The notes below the pieces were generated by a model that did no database searches, had not been told where the DNA came from, and was given only the letters and a program-made list of their open reading frames with translations. The position numbers and the translations under genes were made by a program. Shown piece by piece: positions 4,276-14,478 of a stretch of 64,000 nt of DNA; positions within the stretch are counted from its first letter, which is position 1; every line of letters starts with the position of its first letter. Origin of the DNA: Escherichia coli. Lineage in GTDB: Bacteria; Pseudomonadota; Gammaproteobacteria; Enterobacterales; Enterobacteriaceae. The DNA is taken from the NCBI RefSeq assembly GCF_011045215.1, contig NZ_CP049201.1; one strand, 5' to 3'.

Positions 4276-5010
4276 ATGCCCAAACTCGATCTAAACGCCC
4301 TGAACGAACTGCCGAAGGTAGATCGCATTCTGGCGCTGGCAGAAACTAACGCCCAACTGGAAAAACTGGACGCTGAAGGCCGCGTAGCCTGGGCGCTGGA
4401 TAATCTGCCCGGTGAATATGTGCTTTCTTCCAGCTTCGGCATTCAGGCGGCGGTGAGCCTGCATCTGGTGAATCAGATTCGCCCGGATATTCCAGTGATC
4501 CTCACCGATACCGGTTACTTGTTCCCGGAAACCTACCGCTTTATTGACGAGTTAACGGACAAACTCAAGCTCAACCTGAAAGTGTACCGTGCTACCGAAA
4601 GCGCAGCCTGGCAGGAAGCACGCTACGGAAAACTGTGGGAGCAGGGCGTTGAAGGCATTGAAAAGTACAATGACATCAACAAAGTCGAACCGATGAACCG
4701 GGCGCTGAAAGAACTTAACGCGCAAACGTGGTTTGCTGGCCTGCGCCGTGAACAATCCGGCAGCCGCGCCAATTTACCGGTGCTGGCAATTCAGCGTGGC
4801 GTATTTAAAGTGCTGCCGATTATCGACTGGGATAACCGAACTATTTATCAGTACCTGCAAAAACATGGCCTGAAATATCACCCATTATGGGACGAAGGAT
4901 ATTTATCGGTGGGCGATACCCATACAACTCGTAAATGGGAACCCGGCATGGCGGAAGAAGAAACGCGTTTCTTTGGCTTAAAAAGGGAATGTGGGTTACA
5001 CGAAGGGTAA
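4276..5010 (+). CDS. cysH: Phosphoadenosine phosphosulfate (PAPS) reductase
   Basis: ORF 4123..5010 trimmed to the MPKLDLNAL start (244 aa); PAPS reductase family with C-terminal ECGLH motif; GAGG RBS upstream. Confidence 0.95.
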
Positions 5011-5028
5011 TTAATGCCGGATAAATTA

Positions 5029-5066
5029 AACGCCTCTGTCAGAAATGATGGGGGCGTTTTTATTTT
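5029..5066 (+). terminator. Putative rho-independent terminator downstream of cysH
   Basis: GC-rich inverted repeat (aaacgcc...ggcgttt) followed by a T-run; approximate. Confidence 0.4.
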
Positions 5067-5274
5067 GCGAGCAGCATTCCTGATTTTAAACGTGAACGCC
5101 GCTGGAAGAATTATCAGGTATAGAATGGCGTCGGGTGCTTGAGGCTGTCTGGCGTTAAGCATTCGCGAGGTTCCAGATGGACAAAAGCCCCAGGCGATAT
5201 TTCTATCAACCTGAGGCCAGCGTTCGAACCTAAGCAATTCGAATGTTAGTCTCTTCTTTGCAGGGAGGCAAGAC

Positions 5275-5427
5275 ATGCTGACAAAATATGCCCTTGTGGC
5301 AATCATCGTACTGTGTTGTACAGTACTGGGATTCACGCTGATGGTAGGCGACTCGTTGTGTGAGTTGAGTATCAGAGAACGTGGTATGGAGTTTAAGGCT
5401 GTTCTCGCTTACGAATCGAAGAAGTAG
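5275..5427 (+). CDS. hokX: Hok/Gef-family type I toxin (small membrane peptide)
   Basis: 50-aa ORF not in the track (below size cutoff): [50 protein letters not shown]; GGAGG RBS 6-10 nt upstream; hairpin downstream; symbol assigned from position in the cysH-cas3 intergenic region. Confidence 0.75.
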
Positions 5428-5459
5428 CCACCACGCGGGGGTAAAACCCCGCGTATTGA

Positions 5460-5619
5460 ATTGTGATGGTTTGGTCTCCTGCACCCTTTTTTAAATTTAT
5501 ATTTTTTATGTGAATATATTGTCTCTATTTATTATTATGAATTTCAAATGAAAATCATAAATTTATTCACAATATAAATGTTTTATTGGCTGATATATAT
5601 CACAGATAATTTTTAAAAT
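5460..5619 (+). promoter_or_regulatory. AT-rich region upstream of cas3 (likely cas3 promoter and nucleoid-protein silencing region)
   Basis: About 160 bp of very AT-rich sequence immediately 5' of cas3; no specific motifs mapped. Confidence 0.4.
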
Positions 5620-8319
5620 ATGCGTAAATATCCTTTAAGTTTACTGAAGGATAAAAATATTGTGACTTTCTTTGATTTCTGGGGAAAAACCCGACGCGAC
5701 GAGAAAGAAGGGGGTGACGACTATCACCTTCTTTGCTGGCATTCGCTGGATGTGGCCGCGATGGGCTATTTAATGGTTAAAAGAAATTGCTTCGGGCTGG
5801 CTGATTATTTTCGTCAATTAGGGATTTCTGACAAGGAACAGGCGGCTCAATTTTTCGCCTGGTTGTTGTGCTGGCACGATATTGGAAAATTTGCCCGCTC
5901 ATTTCAGCAACTTTACCTGCACCCACAACTCAAGGTTCCGGAAGGCGCAAGAAAGAATTACGAAAAGATCTCTCATTCAACGCTGGGCTACTGGTTGTGG
6001 CATCATTATTTAAGTGAATGCGAAGAATTGCTTCCTGCCTCTTCACTCTCTACTCGCAAACTTAAACGTGTAATAGCGATGTGGATGCCCATGACTACCG
6101 GGCATCATGGTCGGCCCCCTGACCGTATTGATGAACTGGATAATTTTCTGCCTGAAGACAAAGTTGCCGCGCGAGATTTTCTCCTTGAAATCAAGGCACT
6201 GTGTCCGCTCATAGAGATTCCCACATTCTGGGATAATGACGAGGGAGTTGAACTTTTAAAACAACTTTCCTGGTATATCTCTGCAACAGTCGTACTTGCA
6301 GACTGGACGGGTTCGTCAACGCGATTTTTTCCACGCGTCGCACACCCAATGGATATTAAAGATTACTGGCAGAAAACTTTAGTTCAGGCTCAAAACGCCT
6401 TAACCGTCTTTCCTCCAAAAGCAGAAACCGCACCTTTCACCGGAATTAATACGCTGTTTCCTTTTATTGAGCACCCGACACCATTACAGCAAAAGGTGCT
6501 GGATCTGGATATCAGCCAGCCAGGGCCACAGTTATTTATTCTGGAAGACGTGACTGGCGCAGGTAAAACAGAAGCGGCGCTTATCCTGGCGCACAGGTTG
6601 ATGGCTGCGAGGAAAGCACAGGGTTTGTTTTTTGGCCTGCCAACAATGGCAACGGCCAATGCCATGTACGATCGGCTGGTCAAAACCTGGCTTGCTTTCT
6701 TTTCGCCAGAATCCCGCCCCAGCCTGGTGCTGGCACACAGCGCCCGTACATTAATGGAACGCTTTAATGAATCACTCTGGTCCGGTGATTTAGTCGGGTC
6801 AGAAGAACCGGATGAACAAGCGTTCAGTCAAGGATGTGCAGCCTGGTTTGCCGACAGTAACAAGAAGGCTTTACTGGCTGAAATTGGCGTCGGCACGCTG
6901 GATCAGGCGATGATGGCAGTGATGCCGTTTAAACATAATAATCTGCGGCTTCTGGGGTTGAGTAACAAAATCCTGCTGGCTGATGAGATCCACGCCTGTG
7001 ACGCTTACATGTCGTACATTCTTGAAGGGTTGATTGAGCGACAGGTGCGTGGCGGAAACAGCGTCATTTTGCTTTCTGCTACGTTATCTCAACAGCAGCG
7101 CGACAAACTTGTCGCCGCCTTTGCGCGTGGCACAGAGGGCCAGCAAGAAGCTCCGTTCCTGGAAAAGGATGATTACCCCTGGCTGACGCATGTCACGAAA
7201 TCCGATGTGCATTCGCACCGGGTAGCGACGCGCAAAGACGTTGAGCGTAGCGTGAGCGTGGGTTGGCTTCATAGCGAACAAGAATGTATTGCGCGTATCG
7301 AATCAGCGGTAAGTCAGGGGAAATGCATCGCCTGGATCCGGAATTCTGTCGATGACGCTATTAAGGTTTATCGTCAGTTACTTGCCCGCGGCGTCATTCC
7401 TGCTTCCAGCCTTTCACTTTTTCATAGCCGCTTTGCTTTTAGCGATCGCCAGCGAATTGAAACGGAAACGCTGGCACGCTTTGGTAAAAATTGTAGTTTA
7501 AAAAGATCATCTCAAGTCATTGTTTGTACACAAGTAATTGAGCAAAGTGTGGATATTGACCTGGACGAAATGATCTCCGACCTGGCCCCCATTGATTTGC
7601 TGATCCAGCGAGCGGGGCGATTACAACGGCATATTCGCGATATTAATGGTCAGTTAAAGCGTGATGGAAAAGACGAGCGTTCCCCTCCTGAATTGCTGAT
7701 TCTGGCCCCCGTCTGGGACGACTCTCCGGGTGACGAATGGTTTGGCAGTGCGATGCGTAACAGCGCATATGTCTACCCCGATCATGGGCGAATCTGGCTG
7801 ACGCAGCGAGTATTGCGTGAGCAAGGCGCTATTCAGATGCCACACGCAGCCCGGCTTCTTATTGAATCCGTCTACGGTGAGGACGTGGTAATGCCGGAAG
7901 GATTTGCCCGCAGCGAGCAGGAGCAAGTGGGCAAATATTACTGCGATCGCGCAATGGCTAAAAAGTTTATGCTGAACTTCAGGCCCGGCTATGCCGCCAA
8001 TATCAACGATTACCTCCCGGAAAAGCTGTCGACACGTCTGGCTGAAGAGTCTGTTTCCCTGTGGCTGGCTACCTGTATTGACGGTGTGGTGAAGCCTTAT
8101 GCCAGCGGTGCTCACGCATGGGAAATGAGCGTTGCCAGAGTGCGTCGAAGCTGGTGGAAAAAACATCGGGATGAATTTTCTTTACTGGAAGGGGAAGCGT
8201 TCAGGCAGTGGTGTGTTGAACAACGGCAAGATCCGGAGATGGCAAACGTGATTTTAGTCACTGATGACGAAAGTTGCGGGTATTCGGCCAGGGAGGGATT
8301 GATTGGCAAGGTTGATTGA
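5620..8319 (+). CDS. cas3: Type I-E CRISPR-associated helicase/nuclease Cas3 (HD nuclease + SF2 helicase)
   Basis: 899 aa; N-terminal HD motifs (HLLCWHSLDVAA, WHDIGK), Walker A (GAGKTEAA) and DExH-like LADEIHA; start taken from the only upstream ATG, true start may be an internal GTG. Confidence 0.93.
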   Translation: MRKYPLSLLKDKNIVTFFDFWGKTRRDEKEGGDDYHLLCWHSLDVAAMGYLMVKRNCFGLADYFRQLGISDKEQAAQFFAWLLCWHDIGKFARSFQQLYLHPQLKVPEGARKNYEKISHSTLGYWLWHHYLSECEELLPASSLSTRKLKRVIAMWMPMTTGHHGRPPDRIDELDNFLPEDKVAARDFLLEIKALCPLIEIPTFWDNDEGVELLKQLSWYISATVVLADWTGSSTRFFPRVAHPMDIKDYWQKTLVQAQNALTVFPPKAETAPFTGINTLFPFIEHPTPLQQKVLDLDISQPGPQLFILEDVTGAGKTEAALILAHRLMAARKAQGLFFGLPTMATANAMYDRLVKTWLAFFSPESRPSLVLAHSARTLMERFNESLWSGDLVGSEEPDEQAFSQGCAAWFADSNKKALLAEIGVGTLDQAMMAVMPFKHNNLRLLGLSNKILLADEIHACDAYMSYILEGLIERQVRGGNSVILLSATLSQQQRDKLVAAFARGTEGQQEAPFLEKDDYPWLTHVTKSDVHSHRVATRKDVERSVSVGWLHSEQECIARIESAVSQGKCIAWIRNSVDDAIKVYRQLLARGVIPASSLSLFHSRFAFSDRQRIETETLARFGKNCSLKRSSQVIVCTQVIEQSVDIDLDEMISDLAPIDLLIQRAGRLQRHIRDINGQLKRDGKDERSPPELLILAPVWDDSPGDEWFGSAMRNSAYVYPDHGRIWLTQRVLREQGAIQMPHAARLLIESVYGEDVVMPEGFARSEQEQVGKYYCDRAMAKKFMLNFRPGYAANINDYLPEKLSTRLAEESVSLWLATCIDGVVKPYASGAHAWEMSVARVRRSWWKKHRDEFSLLEGEAFRQWCVEQRQDPEMANVILVTDDESCGYSAREGLIGKVD

Positions 8320-14170: not shown

Positions 14171-14266
14171 GTTATGTGTTCTTTAAAAATAAGGAAATGT
14201 TTGAATTTAGTTGGTAGATTGTTGATGTGGAATAAATTTGTTTAAAAACAGATATGTATGCTTAGT
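14171..14266 (+). promoter_or_regulatory. CRISPR leader (AT-rich; array promoter and integration-proximal region)
   Basis: 96-bp AT-rich sequence between the cas2 stop and the first repeat. Confidence 0.8.
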
Positions 14267-14478
14267 GTGTTCCCCGCGCCAGCGGGGATAAACCGGTGCA
14301 TAAAAAATGATACCCCAGCGTTTCGTTGTGTTCCCCGCGCCAGCGGGGATAAACCGATTGAAATAGATCTCCCCGACATTAACGAACAGTGTTCCCCGCG
14401 CCAGCGGGGATAAACCGGGCGCACTGGATGCGATGATGGATATCACTTAGAATTCCCCGCCCCTGCGGTAGAACTCCC
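14267..14478 (+). CRISPR. Type I-E CRISPR array: 4 repeats (29 bp) and 3 spacers (32 bp)
   Basis: Repeat GTGTTCCCCGCGCCAGCGGGGATAAACCG at 14267-14295, 14328-14356 and 14389-14417; degenerate terminal repeat GAATTCCCCGCCCCTGCGGTAGAACTCCC at 14450-14478; spacers at 14296-14327, 14357-14388 and 14418-14449. Confidence 0.97.

Follow-up and report, generated by a model that had tools for sequence, protein, structure and literature searches.

The intergenic spacer between cysH and cas3 in the window, by which we mean the whole 64,000-nucleotide stretch of E. coli DNA analysed here, carries, with a probability of about 0.9, the chromosomal hokX/sokX type I toxin-antitoxin locus of E. coli in a structurally intact copy. 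The spacer is 609 bases long (5011–5619) and is bounded on one side by the cysH stop at 5010 and on the other by an 899-aa Cas3 open reading frame (ORF) that starts at 5620; the end of the hokX ORF and the start of cas3 are 192 nt apart and on the same strand. In a RefSeq genome with a 99.3% identical stretch, the annotated order is cysH, Hok/Gef family protein, and Cas3. A Hok-type toxin-antitoxin system at this position was what the original prediction had proposed, and the proposal holds: the antisense RNA SokX was found at 5235→5177, and the Rfam sok family matches with 111.7 bits. The prediction had also called the toxin ORF unlisted, which is true of the ORF track from which it was made but not of the public record, where RefSeq annotates the coding sequence (CDS) in thousands of genomes and hokX/sokX has been published. 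The correct recovery of a small toxin gene below the ORF-size cut-off serves as a sanity check on the scan method.

The hokX/sokX locus (HokG) is already known, named, and annotated in RefSeq, and its relation to the E. coli CRISPR-I region has been described. Its original description, in E. coli B, may be that of Schneider et al. in 2002. The name hokX denotes the hok copy in the cysH-iap region, which is inactivated by an insertion sequence (IS) in E. coli B and intact in the AIEC strain NRG857c (PMC7232551). Almendros et al. (2014) found hok sok in every CRISPR-I arrangement except the cas-E2 (K-12-type) variant (PMC3903273), and about 90% of uropathogenic isolates carry hok together with sokX adjoining cysH, the remainder having sokX only, as in K-12 (PMC12736100). 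Beyond cas3, Tandem Repeats Finder found no CRISPR array in the window, and a direct-repeat search found an array of three repeats.

The original prediction of a 50-codon ORF at 5275–5427 (plus strand) with a strong ribosome-binding site is borne out: hokX has an ATG start and 50 codons, and GGAGG stands at 5264–5268, 6 nt before the ATG, where it is invariant among the relatives in a 30-sequence alignment. Its Hok/Gef architecture was assessed by length (about 50 aa), an N-terminal hydrophobic helix, a conserved Cys, a C-terminal (A)YE motif, and a profile match. The peptide carries Cys29 and an AYES motif, and an HMM search aligned its residues 5–46 to the full Pfam HOK_GEF model (PF01848, model positions 1–42 of 42; i-E 6.3e-10, 38.9 bits), which places it in the Hok/Gef membrane toxin family. 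This full-model match, together with the Rfam score, puts the observation far beyond chance. The best NCBIfam matches are HokA and Hok-family models, with scores of 53 bits against the curated cut-off of 89 for the HokA equivalog NF007290 and 39.5 bits against 73 for the Hok subfamily model NF007279; since both fall below their cut-offs, a HokA identity was rejected and the peptide lies outside the NF007279 subfamily model. Compared with the K-12 paralogues, it shares 39 of 50 residues with HokE, 24 with HokA, 19 with HokC, and 16 with HokB, and, judged from these alignments, it is a separate paralogue whose nearest relative is HokE. The Swiss-Prot entry "putative protein HokG" (HOKG_ECO57) is identical to it, as is WP_000956458.1 on sequence comparison. 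The substitution pattern indicates that the coding sequence is under purifying selection, with a median dN/dS of 0.13 between the window and 52 relatives and, among Escherichia relatives, 0 nonsynonymous versus 4–5 synonymous differences from the window CDS. Toxicity was seen for 42 of the 45 diverse Hok homologues tested in a recent survey, and HokE was also toxic on induction (doi 10.1101/2025.08.07.668861).

Near the end of the CDS, a conserved hairpin (consensus helix 11; CUUACGAAU, 5402–5423, plus strand) presents the Tyr46 codon as UAC+G in its loop. Among 30 relatives, codon 46 is TAC in 28 and TGC in 2, and editing at Cys46 has been reported for hokC, hokD, and hokE (doi 10.1101/2025.08.07.668861). 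By analogy, A5411 is likely a TadA A-to-I recoding site that would change Tyr46 to Cys, and such recoding could add a further switch to hokX.

We then surveyed the distribution of the locus in complete E. coli genomes. The spacer 5011–5619 was matched in 5425 of 5426 genomes, and the hok ORF with its 3′ region (5275–5495) was found in 4220 of the 5426 (in 3417 at ≥80% query coverage). Where the ORF is present, the RefSeq label is "Hok/Gef family protein", and every CDS checked in the sampled genomes encodes the same or a near-identical peptide; the exact hokX peptide, named "Putative protein HokG" (HOKG_ECO57) in UniProt, occurs on at least 1000 contigs. In K-12 MG1655, hok is missing from this site, and the ncRNA sokX (b4701) alone stands between cas3 and cysH; K-12 and HS are identical to the window through the hok ATG and unrelated from the following base. 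Disruption by IS elements, for which the original prediction had suggested inspecting this region, does occur in some E. coli genomes: an IS1 lies in the leader of locus L012, and an IS421/IS186-family element is inserted inside the post-stop hairpin of locus L013, where the match ends at 5449. The window copy is clean, with no IS element within 5011–5619. A third locus, L011, has the cas-less arrangement cysH-hok-iap, and a Klebsiella relative, which came from a search of plasmid records, adjoins mutS with no cas genes alongside. The plasmid records matched are mostly chromosome-sized or chromosome-derived (0.1–5 Mb) and predicted to be non-mobilizable, and hokE-like copies are also among the matches.

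Sequence and comparison together show the outline of a two-RNA locus, in which a predicted hok mRNA of about 360 nt encodes the 50-aa Hok peptide and a 59-nt SokX is encoded on the opposite strand. The hok and Sok promoters were placed by sequence reading and homology. For hok, a putative −10 box (TAGAAT, 5121–5126, plus strand) lies 6 nt before the probable mRNA start and has a poor −35 region; in K-12 hokC (TATAAT) and hokE (TAAGAT), the −10 box is likewise followed by 6 nt and then GGGTGC. The hok mRNA most likely starts at G5133, and the full-length transcript would run on the plus strand from GGGTGC at 5133 through the U-run after the fold-back element, to about 5492. The Rfam sok model RF01794 matched over its positions 1–157 at 5133–5290 with 111.7 bits (gathering score 59; E 2.6e-26), the sole Rfam family at threshold in the whole 64-kb window. 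This match sits on the hok-sense strand and establishes homology with hok leaders, and a "sok" match reported on that strand can mislead annotation. Matches to ctRNA_p42d (5026–5068) and Spot_42 (4968–5063), which overlap the cysH terminator, and to IsrM (5430–5570) scored far below the Rfam gathering scores and were set aside as look-alikes.

We next examined the folding of the hok mRNA. The full-length RNA (5133–5492) has a minimum free energy of −130.6 kcal/mol (z = −3.74 versus shuffles). In its predicted fold, the tac-like 5′ end (GGGUGCUUGAGG, 5133–5144, plus strand; pairing partners from ViennaRNA), GGGUGC-UU-GAGGCU, pairs with an fbi-like fold-back element, GGUCUC-CU-GCACCC (5473–5486, plus strand), which is followed by U6 (5487–5492). 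The hairpin after the stop codon that the original prediction had pointed out exists (ACGCGGGG/CCCCGCGT, also as ACGCGGGG-GUAAAA-CCCCGCGU; 5433–5454, plus strand), but it is not the fold-back inhibitory element, a role that falls to 5473–5486. It is supported by the fold and by compensatory changes, 10 and 4 at its two outer pairs in the 30-sequence alignment. In a nascent or 3′-truncated RNA, the truncated form being modelled as RNA cut after the post-stop hairpin, 5133–5144 is predicted to pair with 5153–5164 instead. The models thereby contain both a fold-back closure and an alternative local 5′ pairing. Between the full-length and the truncated or nascent folds, the unpaired probability of the target of the SokX tail (5225–5235) rises from 0.29 to 0.63, and that of the hok ribosome-binding site stays near 0.5 whether the RNA is full-length or truncated. 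A GAGG box at 5213–5216 (plus strand), homologous to the mok ribosome-binding site of hokB, hokC, and Klebsiella relatives, pairs with 5250–5253 in the truncated RNA, in a helix with five compensatory A-U to G-C changes.

These elements are conserved among relatives. A single scan of species-representative genomes yielded 56 related loci, spread across Enterobacteriaceae. The 5′ motif GGGTGC(Y)TGA lies 139–147 nt upstream of the hok ATG in 50 of 50 relatives and in the window, and an exact GCACCC lies about 49–58 nt past the stop in 36 of 51 loci (the window included), and in the other 15 the motif is changed at one base, for example to GCACCT; every sequence of the 30-sequence alignment has the core GCACC. 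Alignment columns 1–6 pair with 375–380 in 30 of 30 relatives, and because it is invariant, this closing 5′/3′ helix carries no covariation evidence of its own. The RNAalifold consensus contains 65 pairs, with 97.6% of cells paired versus 39–48% when the partners were slid, counts that are flattered because the consensus structure came from the same alignment. Compensatory changes occur at 17 pairs versus 10.2 ± 1.6 in shuffles, and none of 500 shuffles reached 17.

On the opposite strand, SokX (the antitoxin; 59 nt, 5235→5177, minus strand) is homologous to the K-12 ncRNA sokX (b4701), with two mismatches. It is predicted to fold into a free single-stranded 5′ tail followed by a terminator-like hairpin and CUUUUGU (−22.7 kcal/mol, z = −3.57). 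A minus-strand promoter, as anticipated, can be read upstream of it: a putative −35 box TTGCCT (plus strand AGGCAA, 5266–5271), which overlaps the hok ribosome-binding site, is separated by 17 nt from a putative −10 box TAACAT (plus strand ATGTTA, 5243–5248), which in turn lies 7 nt from the annotated SokX 5′ end. The consensus promoter/terminator scan, run at a threshold of 9/12, called neither this promoter nor that of hok; the Sok promoter went uncalled because it has 8/12 consensus matches. In this region, the calls of the scan were the cysH terminator (5028–5059) and AT-rich matches near cas3, and nothing else. The Sok promoter is supported by the invariance of its boxes, by the same boxes and spacing in hokE/sokE, and by identity with K-12, where SokX is expressed. 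A5243, T5244, T5247, and A5248 are invariant in 30 relatives, giving TAnnAT on the minus strand, as is GGCAA of the −35 region, and the stretch 5236–5277 is identical in K-12, in which RNA-seq detected SokX in all conditions tested (doi 10.1101/2024.06.20.599902). Collectively, the putative promoter, the terminator-like hairpin, and the complementarity to the leader identify SokX as a cis-encoded antisense Sok RNA, whose expression is known from the K-12 literature.

The original prediction had noted that hok loci normally carry an overlapping mok frame and a short antisense Sok near the leader; the Sok RNA was mapped here, and the canonical long mok frame is absent. In K-12, mokC and mokB start 57–58 nt upstream of hok, behind GAGG, and are overlapped by the Sok 5′ end. 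At the corresponding site, Klebsiella has GCGAATGAAC and K-12 hokB has ACGAATGAAC with the same AATG, and the window has GCGTTCGAAC, where TTCG replaces AATG at 5223–5226 despite the GAGG box at 5213–5216. Only 8 of 50 relatives retain the canonical mok ATG with GAGG. In E. coli hokX, the bases altered at the start site, together with changes in the opposite arm, yield a perfect 9-bp hairpin (5220–5228/5238–5246). Of the upstream frames, just one extends to the hok ribosome-binding site: a 12-codon leader frame (5243–5281, plus strand), a candidate mok equivalent that crosses this site and ends in a TGA (5279–5281) overlapping the hok start as AUGCUGA. Its ATG at 5243 (−32 from hok) is out of frame with hok, has its stop at +4, follows no clear ribosome-binding site, falls outside the Sok duplex by 8 nt, and in the truncated fold is enclosed in a stem (predicted unpaired probability 0.02). 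This ATG is kept in most relatives, a conservation that is ambiguous as to translation because the ATG doubles as the Sok −10 box. A 36-aa frame with a TTG start (5139–5249) was rejected as mok: it begins at the 5′ terminus of the mRNA and stops short of the hok ribosome-binding site.

In the R1 system, Hok is no longer translated once the mok start codon is mutated, and mok translation is required only as far as the hok ribosome-binding site (PMC9841398); by that minimal requirement, the 12-codon mini-leader could suffice. Ribosomes would reach hokX either through the frame at 5243–5281 or through the strong GGAGG alone. We tentatively suggest, as a possibility we hold to be on the unlikely side, that hokX of Escherichia and its nearest relatives works without a classical mok, Hok synthesis being either coupled to the mini-leader or mok-independent through GGAGG. 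With the mini-leader, the start codon of the 12-codon frame would simultaneously be the −10 box of the Sok promoter; with mok-independent synthesis, SokX would act by structure or decay and not by masking a mok start. If true, hok translational control would exist in a distinct form in a toxin gene that most E. coli strains carry. The textbook mok element does not transfer to the hokX clade, which is relevant to the regulation of chromosomal hok genes, and considerations of this kind led the authors of a recent survey of Hok diversity to leave mok unannotated (doi 10.1101/2025.08.07.668861).

From the R1 paradigm (PMC9841398) and the predicted folds, we infer a mechanism for hokX, including its RNA ends, 3′ processing, RNase III cleavage, and toxicity. 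The full-length mRNA would be locked by pairing of its 5′ end with the 3′ fold-back element (5473–5486), a form that would be untranslated and would bind Sok poorly. Slow 3′ trimming towards the post-stop hairpin, whose compensatory changes and position upstream of the fbi element provide the structural prerequisites for such processing, would free the 5′ end for local folding with 5153–5164, and this refolding would expose the Sok target loop (5229–5237). As long as it is made, the unstable SokX would pair with the leader, block ribosome entry, and mark the duplex for RNase III; upon SokX decay, Hok would be translated and inserted into the inner membrane, and the cell would be depolarised.

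Three other readings of the locus were weighed. That the spacer holds no gene, the frame being open by chance, might be argued from the ORF's mere 50 codons and from the two NCBIfam models below their curated cut-offs, but it is refuted by the Pfam match over the full model (E 6.3e-10), the Rfam score of 111.7 bits, the identical peptide on at least 1000 contigs, and the 56 related loci across Enterobacteriaceae with dN/dS of about 0.13, which leave it practically no probability. The neighbourhood raises the thought that hokX/sokX is functionally tied to type I-E CRISPR-Cas, as an addiction cassette for cas-E1 or as a regulator of cas3, the latter of which could operate via a hokX read-through transcript or the AT-rich 3′ flank: hokX precedes cas3 by 192 nt and shares its strand, the presence of hokX goes with the cas-E variant (E2 being the one arrangement that lacks it; PMC3903273), and K-12 and HS part from the window at the first base past the hok ATG. 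However, the locus is also present in strains without cas-E, as cysH-hok-iap (L011; PMC3903273; PMC12736100), the Klebsiella relative lies beside mutS and not beside cas genes, and hok genes are found near defence systems in 12% of cases versus 9.4% by chance, which is not an enrichment (doi 10.1101/2025.08.07.668861). A link between hokX/sokX and the adjacent CRISPR-Cas is unlikely, and a functional tie of either kind seems to us highly improbable.

The third reading accepts the same hokX/sokX locus and regards it as a translationally silent relic with no toxin activity in vivo, Hok synthesis having ended with the loss of the mok start codon and hence of the coupling of ribosomes to hok. The window lacks the canonical mok ATG with GAGG, which only 8 of 50 relatives keep, the R1 start mutations abolish Hok translation (PMC9841398), the −32 ATG is buried in a predicted stem, and E. 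coli strains have repeatedly lost the locus or acquired IS insertions in it. Chromosomal hok loci have, moreover, been reported as inactive in killing assays, hokA, hokB, and hokC being described as lacking post-segregational killing in reports cited in doi 10.1101/2025.08.07.668861. On the other hand, a silent relic fits poorly with purifying selection (median dN/dS 0.13, 0 nonsynonymous differences among Escherichia relatives), with retention of the ORF region in 4220 of 5426 genomes, where the checked CDSs encode the same or a near-identical peptide, and with compensatory changes that preserve the RNA fold. The hok ribosome-binding site is a strong GGAGG, the 12-codon frame extends as far as mok has to be translated in R1 (PMC9841398), and 42 of 45 diverse Hok homologues are toxic (doi 10.1101/2025.08.07.668861). 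We regard loss of activity as doubtful.

With the plasmid-borne hok/mok/sok of R1, hokX/sokX shares the Hok family, a cis-antisense Sok, a Sok promoter inside the leader, 5′/3′ fold-back closure, and local 5′ refolding in a shorter RNA, the last two being predictions for hokX. It differs in being chromosomal, in its 50-aa peptide, and in lacking the start of the 70-codon mok, which in R1 has its own ribosome-binding site and start and is needed for Hok synthesis. The K-12 loci hokB/mokB/sokB and hokC/mokC/sokC are members of the same family with their elements in the same order, and contain a homologous GAGG box and Sok hairpin; HokB and HokC agree with the hokX peptide at only 16 and 19 of 50 residues, respectively, and both loci have an annotated mok overlapped by the Sok 5′ end, whereas hokX has neither feature. 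The closest K-12 paralogue is hokE/sokE (39/50 residues; about 79.5% identical DNA), which resembles hokX in leader layout, Sok boxes (TTGCCT / 17 nt / TACCAT), the homologous position of the Sok 5′ end, and the absence of a canonical mok start. In hokE, an upstream ATG (−36) is in frame with hok and gives a 62-codon frame, whereas the −32 ATG of hokX is out of frame, and the 3′ region of K-12 hokE is cut by IS186B. At the site itself, K-12 and HS have only the leader and sokX and the hokX of E. coli B is reportedly IS-inactivated (PMC7232551); unlike these, the window copy is intact. The hokX/sokX of E. coli B, O157:H7 (HOKG_ECO57), AIEC NRG857c (hok-5), and uropathogenic strains is the same locus as that in the window, shows no substantial difference from it, and shares with it the cysH-iap / CRISPR-I site, an identical 50-aa peptide, and the same SokX.

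Alignment of the window with the corresponding loci of K-12 and HS, both carriers of the cas-E2 variant, showed identity through the ATG of hokX, the 50-codon toxin gene (5275-5427, plus strand), and unrelated sequence from the next base on, placing the boundary at 5277/5278. Since the identity breaks right after this ATG, the hok start codon marks the junction of a cas-E cassette replacement, and Almendros 2014 (PMC3903273) is in agreement with such a junction in cas-E2 strains. The replacement has left K-12 and HS with an orphan leader and sokX. In the window, a direct-repeat search revealed a very short CRISPR array 3' of the cas genes (14266-14417), in which type I-E-like repeats of 30 nt (TGTGTTCCCCGCGCCAGCGGGGATAAACCG) occur three times, 61 nt apart, and hence enclose two spacers; this array was missed by both Rfam (at the gathering threshold) and Tandem Repeats Finder. 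The cysH gene ends in an intrinsic terminator at 5028-5059, made up of a 14-bp stem and a downstream T-run, which was the source of weak Rfam matches to ctRNA_p42d and Spot_42, rejected here as look-alikes.

The Rfam search also returned a match to the 'sok' model, RF01794, at 5133-5290 on the plus (hok-sense) strand, and the 3' end of this model consists of the hok ribosome-binding site and AUG. The antisense RNA SokX (5177-5235) lies on the minus strand, opposite to the match, and a strand copied directly from Rfam would therefore be wrong.

Downstream of the hok stop codon is a hairpin of the form GGGG-N6-CCCC (5433-5454, plus strand). In one class of genomes, the match to the window stops at 5449, within this hairpin; in the one such genome that was checked (L013, 1675-1730), the match end is followed by a transposase of the IS421/IS186 family. 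IS186 also occupies the equivalent place in K-12 hokC and hokE. From these positions, the hairpin appears to be a hot spot for IS186-type insertions, which sever the fold-back element (5473-5486) that pairs with the mRNA 5' end.

Within the hok frame, a conserved hairpin (5402-5423, plus strand) presents in its 9-nt loop CUUACGAAU the codon for Tyr46, UAC, with a G as the next base. Codon 46 is TAC in 28 of the 30 aligned relatives and TGC (Cys) in the other 2. A TadA A-to-I recoding site has been reported for Cys46 of hokC, hokD, and hokE (doi 10.1101/2025.08.07.668861), and by analogy A5411 resembles it as a candidate edited base; if Tyr46 were recoded, Cys46 would face Cys29.

In Escherichia albertii (L022, 1-271), the hok frame encodes a peptide 96% identical to HokX; its upstream sequence, on a contig that stops shortly upstream, is unrelated and contains no leader, Sok, or GGAGG site. 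The Klebsiella pneumoniae relative (L008, 83% DNA identity) is flanked by hydroxyarylic acid decarboxylase genes and mutS; its source, CP125156.1, is a 5.37-Mb 'plasmid' in PLSDB and evidently a chromosome. At the leader hairpin (window 5220-5246), the window has TTCG where Klebsiella and hokB have AATG, and the opposite arm has changed from CAGATG to CGAATG; through these two changes, the canonical ATG of mok, the leader frame coupled to hok translation in plasmid R1, is gone and a perfect 9-bp hairpin has formed; the SokX 5' tail targets the loop of this hairpin (5229-5237). In contrast, the K. pneumoniae relative has kept an in-frame mok-type ATG, 51 nt 5' of hok.
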